This document shows positions 11,646-22,684 of a stretch of DNA of 64,000 bases, one piece after another. The notes under the pieces are model-generated. The model searched no databases. It was not told where the DNA came from and worked only from the letters and a program-made list of their open reading frames with translations. The translations under genes and the position numbers were made by a program. The stretch spans positions 64,001 through 128,000 of the forward strand of contig CAWDKY010000053.1 in assembly GCA_963802945.1 (NCBI GenBank). The letters are read 5' to 3'. This DNA comes from an uncultured delta proteobacterium. GTDB lineage: Bacteria > Desulfobacterota > RBG-13-43-22. The stretch's first letter is position 1. Every line of letters begins with the position of its first letter.

Positions 11646-12995
11646 AGAGCGGGTTTATTCAAGATATTTACAGAAAAAGGGGGCTTCCCAGAAGTTGTCT
11701 GAATGGAGCGGGATTTCTTTCCAAGATAATGACCACGGAAGGAAAGGCCGAAGCCCTGGATGATATGATGGTCCTGGATCTGAGCTATGCCAACTTCTCC
11801 GGGAATATCACCTCCAGCTTTTTTGCCGAGGCCGGAGCCGAGGTTATTAAGGTGGAACCCCCGGAAGGTGATCCGTCCAGGGTCATGAGTCCTTTCGGGA
11901 CCAACATAAAAGGAGTGGGGATTCCTTTTTTGATGGAAAGCAGGAACAAACGACTCATCACCCTGGATATCGGCGATCTAGGAGACCTTGAAAACCTGAA
12001 GACGTTTGGCATCTCAGGCCCATGTGCTGATTGAAACCTTTGCCCCCGGTGAAATGGATGCCTGGGGAATCGGTTACCGCCAGTTAAGGGAGTTGAATCC
12101 CGGCTTGATCTATATCTCCATTACGCCTTATGGGCATTATTCGTCCAAGGCCGAAGCCTTTTCCGGCCAGCCCTGGACCGACTTGACCAGCCAGGCCGAA
12201 TCAGGACTTACCGCCCTGATCGGCGATCTTCCGGATACCCCGGAGCCTTATAACTGGCCGACCAGGGCCGGATTTTATGCTGCCGGGTATACCACGGCCG
12301 TGGCCGCGGCCTGTGGAGGCTTGACGGCTGCCTTTTTCAGACGCCGCACCGGAGAAGGCCAAATGGTCGATATCGCCTCGGCCGACGCCTATACCTCCTG
12401 TGTTGGCTTTCCTCCCACCATCGGTTATGTCTGGAAGAAACCCCGTCTCCGTTATGGAACCCTCGATTACGGTCTGTGCCCTTATGGCTTTTTCAAGTGC
12501 AAAGACGGTTACGTGGCTATCGCCTGTTTCCGGGATCAGGACTTCCGGGCGGCTATGAAAATCCTAGGTACCTGGAAATTGGAAGAGGACTGGAAATCCC
12601 TCCTGGACCGCATCACCGACGATATTGACAAGGTGAAAGAATTAAATGAGGCAGTGGAAAAGGCCGTAGCCAGATATTCCTATAAAGAGATTTCCGAAAA
12701 ATTTTCCAAATACAGCGTCAAGTCCGCCCGCTCCAAATGGAGAGGAGGTGGTCTCCCGGTGACGACCAAGATGCTGACCCCCAAAGAAGTTATGGAACAG
12801 GAACATTGGCAGATCCGCGGCTCTTTTTCCAAATGGAATCATCCTGATTTTGGAATCGTTACCTTGCCCATCACCGGAAAGATGTCCAAAACGCCTTTAA
12901 GGGTGAAATGGATCTCAGCCAACCTCGGAGAGGATAATGATTTTATTTTTAAAAAATACGGATTGAACCCCAGAGAGACAAAAGAAGAAATTTAA
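11632..12995 (+). CDS. Class III CoA-transferase, subunit 2 (frameshifted; start uncertain)
   Basis: ORFs 11729-12034 (ALDDMMVLDLS, GAEVIKVEPPEGD, ESRNKR) and 12006-12995 (VLIETFAPG, LNPGLIY, TGEGQMVDI, PYGFFKCKDG) join into one CaiB-family protein. Confidence 0.85.
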
Positions 12996-13284
12996 CCTTC
13001 TATCGTTAAAGCCAAAAATATATGTGCACTCGAAGTCAAATTTATTTTTTTGCCATTTGCTGCTTGAATTTTTTATCAATCAGATTCCCTATCATAACTT
13101 TCATTCATCTTGTATGAATCACAAAAAGTGTTTCATAAAGTCAGGGCAATTGAAGCCATTTATGGCCTATATTTATATTGACATTGGAGTTTCTTAATTA
13201 TAAAAATTAGCCTCAGATTATTATGGCGGGACTCAAAAATTATTTAGCAAAAATGTTTTAACCCTTTAAAAGAAGAAAGAAATT

Positions 13285-14964
13285 ATGAATTCAGTCATTG
13301 TCCTTGTTTTGGGTTTTATCGTTGCCTTTATCGGTTATCGCTTTTATGCACGGTATATAGATACCAAGGTCATTAAATCCGACCCCAAAAGAGCAACCCC
13401 GGCCAAGATGTACATGGACGGGGTTGAATTCATGCCCACCAGTAAAAACATCCTCTTCGGCTATCAGTTCAAATCCATCGCCGGTGCGGCCCCCATTATC
13501 GGACCGATCATCGCCATCCAGTGGGGCTGGCTTCCGGCCTTGATCTGGATCCTGGGCGGGGCCTTGTTCATCGGCTGGGTTCAGGACTACTCCAGCTCGG
13601 TGATGGCCATGAGAAATGAAGGGGCTTCTTTCGGGGGTTTAAGCCATAAGCTGATTTCACCGCGGGCCCGGATTATTCTTCTCTCGTTTATCTATTTTTA
13701 TCTTCTCCTTATTGCCGGGGCTTTCGGAAGCACTGTGGTGAGCACTGCGATCGGCTTGAAAGCAGCCCCAATGGCCTGGCTATTTTTAACCATCAGCGGG
13801 ATATTGGCCGGCCAGATGATCTACCGCTGGAAAAAAGACATTATCCTGACCACGGTAGTCACGGTAGTTATTGCCCTGATCGGTATTTGGGTCGGAACAC
13901 AGGCCCCTTCCGACAAGATACTGGGTGTTGACCTTTCCAACAGCAGGGTCTTATGGGCCATTGCCGCCTTCGTCTTTTGTTATTTCGCGGCGGTACTGCC
14001 TATCTGGCGGTTTGCCCTTCCCATCAATTATGTGGCCTCTTATATCGTATTCCTTGGACTCTTTTTAGGCATTATCGGTATTTTTATCGTTCATCCCAAT
14101 TTTACCCTTCCGGCCTATACCGGTTTTTTCATCAAGATTGGCCCGTTGTGGCCCATCATGTTTGTCACCATTGCCTGCGGCGCTATCTCCGGCTGGCATA
14201 GCATTGTATCGAGTTCCGGTACAGCCAGGCAATTGGAAAGTGAGATGGATGCCCGACCTGTCGGTGCCGGAGTTATGTTTGTTGAAATGATGCTGGCCTT
14301 ATTCGCCTTGATTATCGCCGGAACTATTTATGCCTCGGCCGGTGAATATGGGGCCGCTATCGTCAAGGGGCCGGGGCCATTTTTGCCGGGGGGGTGGCTA
14401 AGTTCCTCGGTGCCCTTGGACTTCCTGAAGGTTTAGGTAAATCCTACGGCAGCGTTATGATGATCTTTTTGGCCATCACCATTATGCAATTGGTCATCCG
14501 CTTCATGAGGGTCGCTACTTCGGAATTGCTAAGAGATATCAGCCCGGTATTTAGAAATGCCCATGTGGGTACTTTTATAGCCAGCCTCCTCGGCATAGTC
14601 ATCGTGTTGACCGGGTGGTGGCAGTATCTCTGGGTTCTTTTTGGAGGGGCTAATCAGCTCATGGCCTCGTTGGCCCTGTTGTTGATAACGGCCTGGCTCA
14701 TGTCCGAAGGCAAACCGGCCAAGTGGACCTTCTACCCGATGATCTTTATGTTTATAACCACCATTGCCGCTCTGCTCTATACCTCTTATGACCTGCTGTA
14801 CAAAGTTTTTTCAGGTGCGGTCAAAGGAGGGGACCTGATAGGAAACACCCTAATGGGACTGGTCGGGATTATTCCTGGTCATTGCCGCCATTCTCTTGGC
14901 TGTGGATGGTGTCAAGGCCCTTAATCGATACCGGTCGTTGAAGGCTCAGCCGGCACAGGCATAA
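13285..14964 (+). CDS. Carbon starvation protein A (CstA)-family transporter (two frameshifts)
   Basis: TPAKMYMDGVEFMPT, FKSIAGAAPIIGPI, WGWLPALIWI..G..FIG.VQD, LWPIMFVTIACGAISGWHS..SSGT, LWVLFGGANQL. The C-terminus continues to TAA at 14964. Confidence 0.9.
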
Positions 14965-15137
14965 AATTTTTAGTACCCGAAAAGGGGTCGAGGATTCCAG
15001 GGTTTTAACTTCCAAGCCTTTCACTCCGCCCTGCGGTCTTCGACCCCTTGAAGCCTTGAACCCTTACATTTTTAGGTCTTAGAGTGTCTTATCAAGTCAT
15101 AAGGATTTAATTTGAAAAGAAGGAAGGTATAAGTATC

Positions 15138-15407
15138 ATGGGAGACGACGAAAAAAAAAGCGGTTTTTTCCAGGCCATTAAAGAATTTGTCTATGGAGTG
15201 GCGGCCCACGACTCGGCCCGGTTTGCTCTTAAGTCACGGGCCAGCATGGAACACCTCTTTATCCTCATTACCATGGGTGATATGCTGGGTGTTCCCATTC
15301 TGCCACCCTACTACTCTTTAAGGCTGCTGCCTTATGTGGTTCCTCAGATCTCCACCTGGAAACGGAGAATGTTGAGGGAAAAGGATTTGACCGACGCTTT
15401 GGCTTAA
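15138..15407 (+). CDS. Small CstA/ArsA-associated protein (resembles the cory-CC-star family)
   Basis: 89 aa with EHLFILITMGDMLGVPILPPYYSLRLLPY..W.RR; good RBS; lies between the cstA-like and ArsA-like genes. Confidence 0.75.
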   Translation: MGDDEKKSGFFQAIKEFVYGVAAHDSARFALKSRASMEHLFILITMGDMLGVPILPPYYSLRLLPYVVPQISTWKRRMLREKDLTDALA

Positions 15408-15515
15408 TTCAAGTTCGGAGTGGGGAGTTCGGAGTATAGAGTAAAAAAACGATGATTGGTATTCCGGACTGACCACTCTGAACCCCAAACTAATTACTCT
15501 AAACTAAAAAGGGGG

Positions 15516-16494
15516 GTGGGTCCCATTTCGTTAGCTAAGATATTTGAACAATATCCGGACAGACGGTATATCATGTTCGGTGGGAAAGGCGGCCTCGGTA
15601 AAACCACCTTTTCTGCGGCCACCGCTTATTATTTGGCCAAGCAAGGCAAACGCGTCCTGGTTTTTTCCGTAGACCCGCAGGCTTCCTTAAGCGATATCTT
15701 CAAAAAAGATATTTTTGGAAAGGGTCCTACGGAGATCATGCCCAATCTTTACGCCCAGGAGATCGATGCCGACCGCCGGGTAAAGGAGTATCAACAGGAA
15801 ATCAGGCAAAAGATACTCGACCGCTACGGAATGGACAAGATCCCGGAAGAGATCGAAAGTTACATCCAGGCCGCCGCAGCGGAACCGGCTATGGAAGAAA
15901 GCGCCATCTTCGATGAGGTTGTGGATATCGTGGTCAAAGGAGGCTTACGACTATTACATCTATGACCTGGTGCCCTTGGGGCATGCCCTGTACTATCTGA
16001 GCATGGCTTCCGTTTATGATGAATGGATAGACAAGATTACCAATCTCCGACAACAGATGCGGGAATATGACCAGGTGGCTGCCGTCATGCGTCGTGATAA
16101 AGAGCTCGACGAAGACGCTATTCTAAATGAGCTGCTGTATATCAAAGACCGGATCAACAAATCTTCGGCCATACTGACCGACAAAGAAAAGACGGCCTTC
16201 TTTTTCGTGGTCACGGCCGAGGAGATGGTGATTGACGACACCCTTAAGGCGGCCGGCCTTTTTGCCAAGTTCGATGTCCCCTTAAGCGGTTATATCGTCA
16301 ACCGCGTTTTACCGGAAGATTTGAAACATCAGCAGATCCCCGAGTACCTTAAAAATCGTCTGGTCATGCAGGAACACTATCTAAAGGTCATTGACAACAC
16401 CTTTAAAAATCAAATCCTGGCCTATGTTCCGGAAATGGAACGGGATGTGACCGGCCTGGAGATGATTGAAAAATTGGCCGAACGGATGTTTTAA
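15516..16494 (+). CDS. ArsA/Get3-family ATPase 1 (one frameshift near 15940; start uncertain)
   Basis: FGGKGGLGKTT, SVDPQASLSD, LYAQEID, PAMEE, YDYYIYDLVPLGH, YIVNRV. Confidence 0.9.
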
Positions 16495-16542
16495 AAGGCC
16501 CCTCAGCAGAGAATTATCAAGATGCGGAAAAACTCTATTTTT

Positions 16543-16698
16543 ACAGGTTGCTCAAAAAGGTCCAGATACAAGGCGCCCGAAACCGGGACCCGCCCCGAAG
16601 GGGTGGGACTGAGCGTTACCTTTTACGCGAAGAAATTCCGAGGGAAAAAGGGCAATCCCGCCATTGGCGGGATTGATGGGCTTTTTTCAGCAACCTGT
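16543..16698. mobile_element. MITE-like element with about 22-bp imperfect terminal inverted repeats
   Basis: acaggttgctcaaaaaggtcca at the left; the reverse complement of the right end is acaggttgctgaaaaaagccca. Internal hairpin caatcccgccattggcgggattg. Confidence 0.65.
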
Positions 16699-16711
16699 TA
16701 GGAGCCTCAGT

Positions 16712-17692
16712 ATGGATCGAATAACTCAGAGCATGACTCAATATATGAAAGACCATCCTCAAATGAAGTATATCTTCTTTGGTGGCAAGGGAGGCGTGGG
16801 AAAAACGGTTATGGCCGGGGCCGCTGCCCTCTGGTCAGCCAAGCAGGGGAAAAAGACCTTGCTGACTTCCACCAATCCTGTTCACAGTCTTTCCAATCTC
16901 TTCGAACAGGATGTCTTTGGAAAAGAGGTCAGTGTGTGCGATGAAAAGCTTTGCTATGCCTTTGAAATCGACACACACGATACCATTGAGCGGTCAAAAA
17001 ATGAGATCCGGGAGAAGATCAATTGGTTTTTGAAATTCGCCGACCTTACCACCAAGGCGGATGATTTTGTGGAATCAGCCACCATGAACCCGGCCTTTGA
17101 AGAGTCGGCCATGTTTGAAAACATGACTGACCTGATGTTCAAAGACGAATATGATTTTTATGTTTTCGATACCGCCCCCACGGCCAACGCCAGGCGTCTT
17201 CTCGGTATGTCCAAGGTCTATTCCCTCTGGGTTGAGAAGATGCTGAAAAGCAGGGATGAGGCCAAAACGCTCAGAGAAGCCCTTTCCTTTTCCAAAAAAA
17301 AAGAGCAAGACCCTTTAATGGATTACCTCTTAAAATTTAAAGACCGTATGGCCAAGGCCCAGAGTCTCTTGACCGATAACCGTCTCACGGCCTTCTTTTT
17401 TGCCACCCTGCCCGAGGCCCTTCCCATCGCTGTGATTACCCGGTTCATCAATTGGTTTTATGAGTTCGGCATACCCGTCGGTGGTGTGGTGGTCAACGGT
17501 ATCATCCAGAAGGATCAAGTGGGAAAAGATGCCGCAGAATTCGTCCATAACCGGGTTAAGATGCAGGATGAGCATATGGAAGAAATCTGGAATATCTTCG
17601 GCGACAAGGTCAGGGCCACCATACCCCTCTTTGAGACCGAAGTCAGAGGGACGCCGATGCTCAACCGGATGATCGAACACCTGTTTGTCTAA
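16712..17692 (+). CDS. ArsA/Get3-family ATPase 2
   Basis: FGGKGGVGKT, STNPVHSLSN, PAFEE, YVFDTAPTAN, LPEALP, VVVNG; AGGAG RBS. Confidence 0.93.
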   Translation: MDRITQSMTQYMKDHPQMKYIFFGGKGGVGKTVMAGAAALWSAKQGKKTLLTSTNPVHSLSNLFEQDVFGKEVSVCDEKLCYAFEIDTHDTIERSKNEIREKINWFLKFADLTTKADDFVESATMNPAFEESAMFENMTDLMFKDEYDFYVFDTAPTANARRLLGMSKVYSLWVEKMLKSRDEAKTLREALSFSKKKEQDPLMDYLLKFKDRMAKAQSLLTDNRLTAFFFATLPEALPIAVITRFINWFYEFGIPVGGVVVNGIIQKDQVGKDAAEFVHNRVKMQDEHMEEIWNIFGDKVRATIPLFETEVRGTPMLNRMIEHLFV

Positions 17693-17767
17693 GGTTATCG
17701 GATAGAAGTGACCTAAGCCAAAGTCAAGGTTAAAGAACTTCCTCCCATTCCTGTTGAACTTTTTTTC

Positions 17768-17817
17768 TTGACAACAAAATTTTAAAAGTTATACTTTTAT
17801 TAAAAAGGATAACTTTT
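17768..17817 (+). promoter_or_regulatory. sigma70 promoter with palindromic operator for the TA operon
   Basis: TTGACA-N16-TATACT; AAAAGTTAT (17784) and ATAACTTTT (17809) form an inverted repeat overlapping the -10 box and RBS. Confidence 0.65.
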
Positions 17818-18069
17818 ATGTCTTTTGCCCAAATTTCTTCCAAAGGTCAAATTCTGATTCCCAAAAGAATCCGAAAAAAATACGGGGTTAAGCTTGGCGG
17901 AAAGGTCCATATTCTGGAACAAGCCGAAGGGATTCTTATCAAACCGGCTCCCGAGGATCCTCTGGAGGCGGCCTGCGGCTTTCTCAAGGGAGATTTTTCC
18001 CTGACCAGTGATCTGCTGAAAGAGCATTCCAAAGAACAAAGAAATGAAACCGCCCGTCGTTCTCGATAG
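17818..18069 (+). CDS. AbrB/MazE-fold antitoxin (VapB type)
   Basis: ISSKGQILIPKRIRKKYGV..GGKV; overlaps the PIN toxin gene. Confidence 0.9.
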   Translation: MSFAQISSKGQILIPKRIRKKYGVKLGGKVHILEQAEGILIKPAPEDPLEAACGFLKGDFSLTSDLLKEHSKEQRNETARRSR

Positions 18070-18460
18070 TTTTGCCCTCATAAGCTTCTTTCATCAAGAG
18101 CCCGGATGGAAAGCGGTCCGTTCCGTCTTTAAGGAGTTGGCCAAGGCAGGTGAAAAGGCCGCTCTTTCCCGGATCAATTGGGGCGAATTCTACTACATCG
18201 TTAAGCGGCGGGTCGGCCGGGAAAAAACCCTGGAGGCCCTGGCCCTCATTGAACAGCTCCCCATAGACATCCTGCCGGTGGACGATCTGCTGATCAGCGA
18301 GGCGGCGGAAATCAAATCCGATTATCCCGTCGCCTATGCCGATGCCTTCTGTGTAGCCACGGCCCAACGGCTGAACGGCCGCATACTCACCAGCGATCCT
18401 GAATTTAAGGCCGTGGAAAAATTGGTTCCCGTTCAGTGGCTGACACCCCGTAAAAGATAA
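18044..18460 (+). CDS. vapC: VapC-family PIN-domain toxin
   Basis: VVLDSFALI, INWGEFYY, AYADAFCVATA, ILTSDPEF. Confidence 0.92.
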   Translation: MKPPVVLDSFALISFFHQEPGWKAVRSVFKELAKAGEKAALSRINWGEFYYIVKRRVGREKTLEALALIEQLPIDILPVDDLLISEAAEIKSDYPVAYADAFCVATAQRLNGRILTSDPEFKAVEKLVPVQWLTPRKR

Positions 18461-18595
18461 TCAAAAACAATTTCAACCCCTCCTCAATTTTACATCTTAA
18501 GGCTTTTCCCCTTTTAAATTGACAGTAACTGCTTGTTATGGTTTATATTATCTATTCTAATTTTAGTTTTCTCAAGGCCGGCAAACATCAACCGT

Positions 18596-19638: not shown

Positions 19639-20768
19639 ATGATAAGACGCCCTTTTTGGATTCATCGGATTGAAAAGGCTTGGGACAAGCGGTCTATCGT
19701 CTGGTTGTCAGGAGTCCGCCGGGTGGGAAAGACTACCTTGGCTAAAATGTTTCCAAAAGCTGTCTTTCAAAATTGTGATCTTCCTTCAGTTAATCGCAGA
19801 CTTGAAGATCCTGAATTGTTTTATGACGGTTTGGAACCGGGGACTATAGTCATCTTTGACGAAATCCATCGATTGAAAGACCCGAGCCTGTTGTTAAAAA
19901 TCGCCGCAGACGCCTATCCTCAATTTAGAATCCTGGCCACCGGATCTTCTACCTTGGCCGCCACCCAAAAATTCAGGGATAGTCTGGCCGGCAGAAAACA
20001 AATGATTTATCTTACACCCGTACTCTGGCGGGAATGTCTGGAAGAATTCGGCATCAAAAAATTAGACCACCGTCTTCTGATGGGAGGGCTTCCTGAACCC
20101 CTTTTGTCGATCAATAAAGACCCTCATTTTTTTCCGAATGGATGGACAGTTTTTATGCCCGAGATATTCAAGAGTTGTTCGGCATCCGCAATCGATCCGG
20201 TTTTATGAGTTTGTTGCAGTTGGTGATGAGGCAGAGCGGCAGTCTGATCGATTATTCGAATCTGGCCAAATTGAGCGATCTTAGCCGACCTACGGTCAAA
20301 TCCCATATCGAAGCCATGAGTATTGCCCATGCCTTGTTTTTACTCCCCCCCTTTCATGGAGGGGGCAGGCGGGAAATCATCCGGAGACCTAAGGGCTATA
20401 CTTTTGATACCGGCTTTGTTGTTTTTATAAAGGGATGGGACAGTATTCGGGAGGAAGACCGGGGATTTTTATGGAAGCATCTTGTCCTTGATGAACTGCG
20501 GACCATTTTCGACGACCGCAATCTCTATTTTTGGAGGGATAAATCCGGCCGGGAAGTGGATTTTGTGATAAAGGGTTCCGGGCAGCGGGTTGACGCCATT
20601 GAATGCAAAATTAACCCGGATAAATTTAGCCCGGATGATTTGGCTGTTTTCCGGTCAATATATTCTGAAGGCAGGAATTGGGTCCTATCCCCGGCGATAA
20701 AAACTGGTTATCAAAGACGATACGGGAAAATGCTGGTCCAATTCTCTTCATTGATGGATTCACATTAA
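19639..20768 (+). CDS. AAA_14 ATPase with DUF4143 / PD-(D/E)xK-like C-terminus (frameshift near 20130)
   Basis: GVRRVGKTT, IFDEIH, ATGSS, SLAGR, GGLPE; then RDIQELF, FDTG, FWRDKSGREVDFV..AIECK. Confidence 0.88.
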
Positions 20769-21068: not shown

Positions 21069-22684
21069 ATGCCTAAAGTCAAGAAAGCAAACCAGAAGAA
21101 TAATAAACAGGAATCCATTGAGGCGACACTCTGGCAAGCTGCGGATAAACTGCGCAAGAACATGGATGCCGCGGAATATAAGCATGTGGTCCTTGGCTTG
21201 ATATTTCTCAAATACATATCCGATGCCTTTGAAGTCCTGCATTCCAAACTGGTGAAAGGCAAGGGCGAATATGAAGGGGCCGACCCGGAAGACCCGAACG
21301 AATACACCGCCGAAAAGGTTTTCTTTGTTCCCGCCTGTCGCCCGATGGAAACCCATTTCCGATAACGCCAAGAAGACCGAAATCCTGCTCGAAAACGGCA
21401 AGAAAGTTGATATCGGCGGATATGTCGATGAAGCCATGGAAGCCATTGAACGCCAGAACCTTTCTCTCAAAGGCGTTCTTCCCAAGGTTTACGCCCGTCA
21501 GAACCTTGACCGGGCAAGCTTGGGCGGTCTCATCGACCTTGTCGGCACGATTGCCCTTGGCACCGAAGAGGCAAAAAGCAAGGACGTGCTCGGCCAGGTG
21601 TATGAATATTTCCTCGGGCAATTTGCCCTTGCCGAGGGGAAAAAGGGCGGACAGTTCTATACCCCCAGAAGCGTTGTCAAGCTGCTGGTTGAAATGCTCG
21701 AACCATACGAAGGCCGCGTGTTCGACCCCTGCTGCGGTTCGGGCGGCATGTTTGTTCAGAGCGAGAAGTTTATCGCAGCTCACCAGGACCATTATAAAAA
21801 GAAGGAGCAACGGCAGTCAGCCTCAATCCCGCCGACCTGATCTCCATTTACGGGCAGGAGTCCAACCAGACCACCTGGCGTCTTGCCAAAATGAACCTTG
21901 CCATTCGCGGGATCGACAGCTCCAATATCAAATGGAACAATGAAGGCTCGTTTCTCAATGACGCGCACAAAGACCTGAAGGCCGACTTCATCATTGCCAA
22001 TCCGCCCTTCAACGATTCCGACTGGTCGGGCGATCTCTTAAAAGATGACGCCCGCTGGAAGTATGGCGTCCCGCCCTGCCGGCAATGCCAATTATGCCTG
22101 GATTCAGCACTTCATCTATCACATGTCGCCTACTAAGGCATGGCAGGCTTTGTGCTTGCCAAGGGTTCGCTTACTTCCAAAACCAACGGTGAAGGCGAAA
22201 CACGGAAAGCCATTATCGAAGCAGGACTCCTTGACTGCATCGTCAATCTTCCGGCAAAACTCTTTCTGAATACGCAGATACCCGCCTGCCTCTGGTTTTT
22301 GTCGCGCAGGAAAGAAGGCCGTCTGGACAAAGTTTTATTTATCGACGCCCGCAATCTCGGTTATCTGATTAACCGCCGCACAAAAGATTTTACCGATGAA
22401 GACATTGCCAGAATAGCCGATACCTATCACCACTGGCACAACAAGAACAAGACAGTATGAAGATATTCCCGGTTTCTGCAAATCCGTCTCGCTCGATGAA
22501 ATCAGGGAAAAAGATTACGTGCTCACGCCGGGCCGCTATATCGGCCTGCCGGAAGATGAGGATGATTTTGATTTTGCCGAACGATTTGGAAAGCTCAAAA
22601 CAGAGCTTGGAAGAGCAGATGAAAGAGGAGGAAAGACTTAACAGGCTGATTTTGGAAAATCTGAAAAAGGTAAAGCCTTTATGA
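21069..22684 (+). CDS. hsdM: Type I R-M methyltransferase subunit (several frameshifts)
   Basis: [80 protein letters not shown] spread across consecutive frames. Confidence 0.9.

Follow-up and report, generated by a model that had tools for sequence, protein, structure and literature searches.

This study concerns an operon of four co-oriented genes in a 64,000-nucleotide stretch of DNA (the window; contig CAWDKY010000053.1, positions 64,001 to 128,000) from an uncultured delta proteobacterium. All coordinates below are those of the window. The operon encodes a CstA-family permease, a small protein of the DUF7990 family (CstX) and two Get3/ArsA-type ATPases (ATPase 1 and ATPase 2), whose nucleotide-binding motifs differ from each other. 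An earlier interpretation made from the letters and their open reading frames (the sequence-only reading) had reported the four genes and quoted the motifs SVDPQAS and DLVPLGH for ATPase 1 and STNPVHS and DTAPT for ATPase 2. The genes lie on the forward strand, and each of these motifs is present in the sequence. The features of the operon are:

13285-17692, + strand: operon cstA - cstX (DUF7990) - ATPase 1 - ATPase 2, four co-oriented genes
13285-14964, + strand: cstA, CstA-family permease of a short (~570 amino acids) CstX/ATPase-linked subfamily; PF02554 on both pieces, indels near 14378 and 14864
15138-15407, + strand: cstX, DUF7990 (PF25952) protein of 89 amino acids, between cstA and the ATPases
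15516-16494, + strand: ATPase 1, Get3/ArsA-type intradimeric-Walker-A ATPase, 325 amino acids as read in relatives; PF02374, alignment to the ortholog of a congeneric genome (G005)
15672-15674, + strand: codon of the switch I catalytic Asp (D53) of ATPase 1, kept
15964-15984, + strand: switch II of ATPase 1, DLVPLGH; Asp, Pro, Gly and His kept, Thr/Ala/Thr replaced by Leu/Val/Leu
16712-17692, + strand: ATPase 2, Get3/ArsA-type ATPase, 326 amino acids; PF02374 (E 2.2e-65) and TIGR00345
16874-16876, + strand: Asn55 codon of ATPase 2, at the position of the switch I catalytic Asp
17168-17188, + strand: switch II of ATPase 2, DTAPTAN; Gly-His gone

Two ATPases with unequal motifs

Pfam searches of the window matched CstA (PF02554) on two pieces of cstA (E 7.7e-118 and 7e-20), and ArsA_ATPase (PF02374) on two pieces of ATPase 1 (E 1.3e-32 and 1.9e-35) and on ATPase 2. 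The likely start of ATPase 1 is a GTG at 15516, and the gene carries one extra T at ~15945. Its P-loop is GGKGGLGKT, its switch I SVD53P and its switch II D150LVPLGH. ATPase 2 probably starts at the ATG at 16712, with AGGAG upstream; the TTG start called mechanically, at 16664, falls within a repeat element. Here the P-loop is GGKGGVGKT, switch I is STN55P and switch II is D153TAPTAN. Both proteins have a P-loop with the intradimeric (signature) lysine, which is invariant in the alignments, and both have the switch II Asp. Neither has the complete switch II DTAPTGH. The catalytic switch I Asp (S-T-D-P) is present in ATPase 1 (SVDP) but not in ATPase 2 (STNP).

With the model for TRC40/GET3/ArsA (TIGR00345), ATPase 2 scored 215.2 bits, above the cut-off of 135, and the two pieces of ATPase 1, scored separately, gave 116.1 and 113.9 bits. 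Scores against the ArsA model TIGR04291 (70.7, 27.8 and 104.5 bits) were under its cut-off of 650, as were those against the BagA/BagB models NF053622 (41.7 versus 400 bits) and NF053621 (37.1 versus 521 bits). The best solved relatives of ATPase 1 are 3ug6 (E 4e-56) and 3zq6 (E 2e-55). ATPase 1 contains no Cys in the window, as the sequence-only reading had noted, and none in 47 of the 55 aligned ATPase 1 rows. In ATPase 2, Cys76 and Cys81 (C-D-E-K-L-C, 16937-16954) are kept in 43 and 45 of 58 aligned rows, respectively, and are not found in the distant members. That reading had also listed arsB, acr3, arsC and arsD as absent. We found no ars gene adjoining the operon and no ArsB match in the whole genome, whose sole acr3 is on another contig. 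An arsenic-resistance function was considered and rejected, given the lack of a Cys triad and of an ars neighbour and scores far below the ArsA cut-off.

The replacement in ATPase 2 falls at the switch I position where Asp-to-Asn or Asp-to-Glu gives the classic hydrolysis-dead mutant of Get3. In ArsA the switch I aspartates anchor the catalytic water, and the D46N/D364N protein is non-hydrolysing, yet still binds MgATP and adopts the closed state (PMC12415280). In switch II of ArsA the aspartates remain bound to the Mg ion, whereas the residues after them and helix 7 shift, linking the nucleotide site with the substrate site; the Thr/Ala/Thr positions connect switch II to helix 6, and the two switch II histidines are stacked on each other across the interface when the protein is closed (PMC12415280). 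More generally, the substrate of an intradimeric-Walker-A ATPase is bound where the two halves of the dimer meet, with switch II providing the coupling (PMC12415280). The sequence-only reading had taken Get3 D57N as established to block hydrolysis. This is consistent with Get3 D57E, which is hydrolysis-deficient and still binds clients (PMC3613179); D57N itself does not appear in the part of that paper available to us.

By comparison with these proteins, ATPase 2 should bind ATP but be unable to hydrolyse it, and it should also lack the His-His contact. The active subunit is probably ATPase 1, which keeps every catalytic residue and is changed only at the Thr/Ala/Thr of the coupling segment. 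The term "reciprocally degenerate", which had been applied to the two proteins, is therefore too strong: of the two, only ATPase 2, with its Asn and the additional loss of Gly-His, looks incapable of hydrolysis. Together they look like one catalytic subunit with a re-tuned transmission element and one ATP-binding, non-catalytic subunit. The Gly-His loss in DTAPTAN, as well as the frameshifts in cstA and ATPase 1 described below, are additional to what the sequence-only reading contained.

Conservation of the four genes and of the unequal pair

A search with a CstX alignment, using one genome per species, gave 588 confirmed stretches out of 600 matched ones among the matches listed, so that a CstX relative is encoded in at least 588 species genomes. 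We surveyed the best 80 of these (at least 588) loci. They come mostly from metagenome-assembled genomes (MAGs) of Thermodesulfobacteriota, with a few labelled as Nitrospirota, Spirochaetes, WOR-3 and Actinomycetota. The order cstA - cstX - ATPase 1 - ATPase 2 occurs in 72 of the 80; the other eight are cut by contig ends, and no other order was found. No flanking gene family was common to more than 13 of the 80 loci, and we therefore regard the module as consisting of these four genes. Among 41 related genomes searched directly, nine, the window's own being one of them, have an ortholog of ATPase 1 with ATPase 2 about 1 kb away. The spacer between the two ATPase genes has a median of ~25 nt and is 30 nt or shorter in 44 of 74 cases.

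Motifs were counted in full-length open reading frames of the 80 loci, leaving out eleven loci with a broken or cut frame. ATPase 1 has GGKGGLGKT, S-V-D-P-Q and D-L-(V/A)-P-L-G-H in 69 of 69, and ATPase 2 has GGKGGVGKT, S-T-N-P-V and DTAPTAN, also in 69 of 69. The pair at locus L009, whose members are 47% and 45% identical to those of the window type, has the same motif pattern. On the distant ATPase 1 side (L009 and representatives of 50% identity clusters) the motifs are STDPQAS and DMPPFGH, and on the distant ATPase 2 side they are S-(T/L)-N-(P/A) and DTA(P/A)xxx without the His. The pattern is thus held in representatives at 36-47% identity, and the Asn is found in every distant ATPase 2 member looked at, L009, P0147, P0178, P0243, P0265 and P0250 among them. 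ATPase 2 is 76-87% identical among 46 orthologs and 62-66% in five more distant ones. Judging by its P-loop, which is invariant in 58 of 58 aligned rows, ATPase 2 is maintained and is not decaying.

For contrast we used the cory-CC-star family of Actinomycetota, for which 17 of 301 genomes were over the cut-off and 15 regions were fetched. Twelve of the 15 are cstA - (CC-star) operons with a single ATPase, and in all twelve this ATPase has STDPAH together with DTAP(T/S)GH. The remaining three regions, from two actinobacterial MAGs, have two ATPases, and these have unequal motifs. The sequence-only reading had proposed a survey of whether the Asp-to-Asn and DLVP changes occur together in two-ATPase operons, and had named read errors as a way in which it could fail. 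The changes do occur together, against canonical motifs in the single-ATPase operons, and their invariance in the full-length orthologs of each ATPase shows that they are not read errors.

In an unrooted maximum-likelihood tree of 54 sequences, in which some rows are long, ATPase 1 (support 100/99) and ATPase 2 (100/100) form separate clans. Both clans, along with one representative of unknown context, are split from the single forms at 99/94. Branching is parallel in the two clans, with the L009 type first, then L008, then L063/L067 and then the rest. From these alignments and the tree we infer that the unequal motifs are real, old and tied to the two-gene state.

We also noted many fused two-domain ArsA-like proteins of ~650 amino acids (representatives P0142, P0152, P0158, P0171, P0177, P0191 and others), in which one half has DTAPTGH and the other D-(L/M)-(A/S)-P-P-G-(L/I)-D-E. 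An unequal pair of switch II motifs is thus also frequent among the fused proteins of this family.

The operon is of the cstA-cstX-(cstY)-arsA-homologue type described by Castillo and Saier (2010; PMC2963123), and the statement of the sequence-only reading that no functional description was known is not borne out. Those authors reported 26 associations of cstA with arsA, 24 of them with cstX, and adjacent pairs of ArsA homologues, 25-31% identical, in two organisms. They described operons without ars genes and ArsA homologues without the ArsA cysteines, reported that the Asp of SXD "can be substituted only by N", and found the operon context in archaea as well. They also proposed that the ArsA homologues energise CstA, with CstX as a linker (PMC2963123). 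The window operon shares with theirs the CstA gene, the CstX of ~90 amino acids, single-domain ArsA homologs of ~330 amino acids, and the lack of a Cys triad and of ars genes; its orthology to their clusters 14-18 is by description, from the part of the paper at hand. In that part the Asn is not linked to one member of a pair, nor are single and paired operons contrasted, and the word "heterodimer" has no occurrence in PMC2963123. Our literature search found no other paper on cstX or on a CstA-ArsA link. What is new here is that the Asn is fixed in one paralogue, which has also lost Gly-His, that switch II is re-tuned in the other, and that operons with a single ATPase differ from the paired ones in these respects.

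CstA, CstX and the surroundings of the operon

The permeases encoded with CstX and the ATPases are ~570 amino acids long and match PF02554 in two stretches at 445-469 bits. An example is an intact ortholog of 574 amino acids (L020:6103-7824), with 469 bits. Canonical CstA, from E. coli and from a second CstA gene beside one related operon, matches in one stretch at 700-855 bits. By this difference in profile match, the CstX/ATPase-linked permeases are a distinct short subfamily of CstA. Genome-wide, the only CstA match is the cstA of the operon, and the only true ArsA-family genes are ATPase 1 and ATPase 2.

CstX is the best conserved of the four proteins, with 36 invariant columns in 53 orthologs, and all of the 80 loci have it. 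It scored 36.8 bits with NF041419 (cory-CC-star), under the cut-off of 80, and it ends in DALA without a Cys-Cys, so it falls outside the cory-CC-star equivalog and yet is homologous to it in the family alignment. When CstX is aligned with the actinobacterial forms, G51, Y59, P65, W74 and R76 are invariant, and the core common to CstX and CC-star is L-G-(V/I)-P ... Y-Y-x-L ... P ... W-x-R. The five actinobacterial CC-star homologs shown (L113, L116, L117, L119 and L126) all end in Cys-Cys. CstX had no match in the local copy of Pfam, from which the PF25952 model is absent. All 31 longer CstX homologs carry a precomputed PF25952 assignment, and the nearest Atlas clusters of CstX are named DUF7990, with scores of 0.90-0.94.

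A small protein is also encoded directly after the CstA-family gene in E. coli, in the pairs CstA-YbdD and BtsT-YjiX (DUF466), and YbdD is needed together with CstA for pyruvate uptake (PMC5847655). Among CstA carriers, YbdD offers the best precedent for a small accessory subunit. The E. coli cstA operon differs from that of the window in having no ATPase gene, and YbdD and YjiX end in Arg-Cys-Cys (preprint 10.1101/2022.07.06.499078; YbdD translation), unlike CstX of the window. Homology of CstX to YbdD (DUF466, PF04328) was rejected: hhalign gave a probability of 2% and there was no Pfam match. The sole stretch in the hhalign comparison was MLGVPILPPYY against MIGMPDYDNYV. The C-terminal Cys-Cys of the actinobacterial CC-star homologs and of the unrelated YbdD and YjiX is convergent.

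About 20-30 residues from its C-terminus CstX has a moderately hydrophobic stretch (best 19-residue Kyte-Doolittle mean 1.49 in the window type). It holds an invariant Asp and is among the best conserved parts of the protein. The homologous stretch of actinobacterial CstX is not hydrophobic (0.95-1.09). A single transmembrane segment was predicted in 2010 by Castillo and Saier. We doubt that the stretch is a membrane anchor, because it is borderline in hydrophobicity, non-hydrophobic in the actinobacterial forms, and contains the invariant Asp.

A second CstX copy occurs in 13 of the 80 loci. In seven it is in tandem (L018, L022, L024, L068, L073, L076 and L077), and in six it is divergent and downstream of ATPase 2 (L023, L026, L042, L049, L052 and L083). 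These second DUF7990 paralogues are 37-64% identical to cstX. L008 is likewise among the loci with a diverged DUF7990 paralogue, and tandem CstX-CstX fusions are seen in P0271-P0273. The 31 longer proteins containing CstX include four CstX-ATPase fusions and one CstA-CstX fusion, all of them singletons. The CstA-CstX fusion and two of the CstX-ATPase fusions have junk linkers or frameshifted segments and look like products of read-through or frameshift; P0274 is the only CstX-ATPase fusion that looks clean. We considered the fusions as a pointer to the partner of CstX (a Rosetta-stone test) and set them aside as too weak, since they are singletons and mostly artefact-like.

AlphaFold2 predicted CstX alone, from a family alignment of 40 rows, as helical with low confidence (mean predicted local distance difference test score, pLDDT, 66.3; predicted template modelling score 0.30). 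For P0274, the natural fusion of CstX with ATPase 1, the ATPase part was predicted confidently and the CstX part had block-mean pLDDT values of 29-69. The P0274 model gave no hint of CstX docking, its CstX part being no better than when folded alone. In a complex prediction of ATPase 1, ATPase 2 and two ATP with CstX as the scored partner, run without controls, the median score was 0.29 against a mark of 0.32, which we take as evidence neither way on binding.

The neighbours of the operon are ABC genes, a coenzyme A (CoA)-transferase gene and a PIN/antitoxin pair. The pair lies directly 3′ of the operon (17818-18460), where a MazE/AbrB-type antitoxin gene (83 amino acids) overlaps that of a PIN-domain protein (138 amino acids); it looks like a VapBC-like toxin-antitoxin system and is followed by an ORF6N-domain gene. 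An Rfam scan of 12500-18500 gave no match at E up to 1. A promoter and terminator scan found nothing above shuffled sequences except a palindrome inside the second of two repeats, which a repeat search placed in the spacers of the operon:

14982-15049, no strand: hairpin-forming repeat with 21-nt arms, 81% complementary, in the cstA-cstX spacer
16543-16698, no strand: repeat element of ~156 nt with 22-nt inverted ends (86% complementary) and an internal 10-bp palindrome

The element at 16543-16698 has 57 matches in the window's own genome, many over its first 104 nt only, and looks MITE-like (miniature inverted-repeat transposable element) or REP-like (repetitive extragenic palindrome). The spacer between ATPase 1 and ATPase 2 is ~217 nt in the window, against the relatives' median given above, because this element has been inserted. 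When contigs of relatives from four public metagenome runs (peat metagenomes) were aligned to the window, the summed depth was 92-199 in the bin 16519-16665 and 29-51 in the bin 14902-15048, compared with ~4-17 in most bins neighbouring the latter. One joint in these contigs connected position 15001 with position 16537 of the other strand, a hint that the cstA-cstX and ATPase 1-ATPase 2 spacers have repeat sequence in common, in inverted orientation.

A proposed one-site heterodimer and its alternatives

Three known systems bear on how the proteins may work. The ArsAB pump (TIGR04291; 1f48, 9nbl) shares with the operon the ATPase fold, the P-loop with the intradimeric lysine and the association of an ATPase with a secondary carrier. 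ArsA, like the proposed heterodimer of the window, is a two-lobed unit with unequal sites, the N site being more active than the C site (PMC12415280). ArsA is, however, one fused polypeptide of ~580 amino acids that has both switch I Asp residues and a three-Cys metalloid site, whereas the window has two genes for proteins of ~325 amino acids, a natural Asp-to-Asn change in one of them, no conserved Cys triad, and CstA instead of ArsB or Acr3 as partner. Archaeal and eukaryotic Get3/TRC40 (3ug6, 3zq6; TIGR00345) gave the best matches (E 4e-56 to 5e-49 over ~300 aligned residues) and, as here, are single-domain ATPases of the dimeric type. Get3, however, has two identical subunits with equal sites and acts with a membrane receptor on tail-anchored clients, whereas the window encodes a fixed unequal pair together with a permease and a DUF7990 protein. 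BagA-BagB (Rv3679-Rv3680) of M. tuberculosis, two different Get3-like ATPases encoded by adjacent genes, form a heterodimer and are chains A and B of one entry (6bs3). Their similarity to the window proteins is remote (E 5e-8 to 8e-6), and they have no linkage to CstA.

The sequence-only reading had proposed an asymmetric heterodimer with one active site that acts on CstA. A one-site heterodimer is the natural reading of an old, co-inherited pair that forms two clans, is tightly spaced, keeps the P-loop in its Asn subunit and is asymmetric only where two genes are present; that much of the proposal has gained support, and the dimer itself is still one predicted from sequence. We tentatively favour, at a little under an even chance, a mechanism in which such a heterodimer passes an ATP cycle through CstX to CstA and makes transport ATP-dependent. 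ATPase 1 and ATPase 2 would form an obligate heterodimer. ATPase 2, which keeps the P-loop and the switch II Asp, would bind ATP without hydrolysing it owing to the Asn at switch I, and catalysis would fall to ATPase 1 alone, whose switch II would be re-tuned where ArsA and Get3 couple the nucleotide site to the "substrate helix". Binding of ATP would close the dimer and hydrolysis at the one site would reopen it. By analogy with ArsAB and with the need of E. coli CstA for YbdD, CstX would be held at or near the dimer interface and would pass the cycle on to CstA. Transport by CstA would then become ATP-dependent, either driven or gated, two possibilities that sequence alone cannot separate.

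Several points weigh against this mechanism. Its support comes from gene order, conservation and analogy rather than from binding. The characterised carriers CstA and BtsT transport pyruvate and are proteins that run on the proton gradient without an ATPase (PMC7730263), so an ATPase is not intrinsically needed. In sequence the two ATPases match archaeal Get3 (E ~1e-50) better than ArsA (E ~1e-28 to 1e-31), and a chaperone or targeting role therefore fits at least as well as pump-driving. In an importer the ATPase would be on the exit side, so that the way in which ArsA captures and hands over its substrate is not directly transferable. Finally, if the three frameshifts in the assembly were real, the operon would be dead in this organism, where cstA is the sole copy.

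The closeness to Get3 leads to an alternative that we consider unlikely though serious, namely that the heterodimer is a targeting factor, holdase or assembly factor for CstX or for a hydrophobic part of CstA. It would capture its client in the ATP state and release it at the membrane, and the ATPases would make the transporter rather than run it. Archaeal Get3 proteins are the closest solved relatives, the hydrophobic stretch near the C-terminus of CstX loosely resembles a tail anchor, and the extra CstX paralogues in 13 of the 80 loci are as expected of a client family. That stretch is, however, highly conserved and has an invariant Asp, unlike ordinary membrane anchors, and the actinobacterial values indicate that a membrane span is not a feature of the family. 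In both ATPases the region matching the TRC40 insert of archaeal Get3 is charged and shorter, as judged by eye from the alignment. A stoichiometric chaperone for one permease would also be an unusual investment.

To a second alternative we give a similarly low probability: the heterodimer may sense the ATP/ADP energy state and switch CstA through CstX, with transport remaining proton-driven. An ATP-binding, non-hydrolysing site beside one slow site of catalysis is a typical arrangement for a switch protein, but in other ATPase families transport is also driven by heterodimers of which one site is degenerate. Characterised CstA proteins are both proton-driven and induced on carbon starvation (PMC7730263), and Get3 relocates with the cellular energy state (PMC3613179), as would suit a regulator. 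The sequence does not separate gating from driving.

The frameshifts raise the question of whether the operon is intact in this organism. cstA is spread over three frames (13285-14436, 14394-14924 and a tail to 14964) and ATPase 1 over two (15456-15965 and 15913-16494). Compared with the window, contigs of relatives from the four runs have one-base differences of +1 after 14378, -1 at 14864/14865 and -1 at 15945, the last in four of four runs. The G005 ortholog of ATPase 1, which is 95% identical, is intact at 325 amino acids without the extra T near 15945, and apart from this indel the differences between the two DNA sequences are mostly synonymous. Genes for a family III CoA-transferase, an AAA_14 + DUF4143 ATPase and a methylase-like protein (11729-12995, 19639-20768 and 21069-22136) are split between frames as well. 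Around the operon the rate is roughly one frameshift per 2 kb, pointing to uncorrected indel errors in the assembly. Since relatives are intact at all three sites and the frame is broken in the same manner in at least three further genes within 13 kb, errors of the assembly are the most likely cause of the frameshifts in cstA and ATPase 1. That the operon is instead a decaying pseudogene cluster, with three real frameshifts, we hold to be quite improbable. Such decay would fit three indels in two of the four genes, and a search of sequencing runs found none with this exact strain (best share of words 0.13) and listed no RNA run. It does not fit the mostly synonymous differences from the G005 ortholog, the splitting of the three unrelated genes in the same 13 kb, or the breaks of the same type in other long-read-style assemblies among the related loci (L017, L025, L027 and L061).

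That the two ATPases do not pair, but form separate homodimers with separate tasks or include an inert relic in ATPase 2, is very improbable: single-domain Get3/ArsA homologs normally homodimerise and the heterodimer is deduced here rather than taken from interaction data, but the genes are always adjacent and tightly spaced, branching runs in parallel within the two clans, 46 orthologs of ATPase 2 share 76-87% identity and have the P-loop intact, and a homodimer of the Asn subunit would have no hydrolytic site.

For the window itself the result is mainly one of annotation: the operon is of a type known so far from genome comparison, and here it carries frameshifts that we attribute to the assembly. 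Its wider interest lies in the role of single-domain Get3/ArsA homologs in bacteria and archaea, for which this operon is among the commonest and most strictly conserved contexts. From the contrast between single and paired ATPases we predict that each heterodimer hydrolyses ATP at one site and that it cannot close unless ATP is bound at the dead one. It is possible, if rather doubtful, that the module is a true ATP-coupled nutrient transporter, in which a one-site heterodimer docked through DUF7990 makes a proton-driven CstA ATP-driven or ATP-gated. If so, this would be a second, independent case, after ArsAB, of an intradimeric-Walker-A ATPase harnessed to a secondary carrier, and the first in which the carrier takes up a carbon source. 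It would also give the Get3 homologs of bacteria and archaea a physiological role that has nothing to do with tail-anchored proteins. Should the ATPase drive or gate CstA, the classification of the transporter family TC 2.A.114 would change, and the module would be relevant to carbon scavenging in energy-limited anaerobes.

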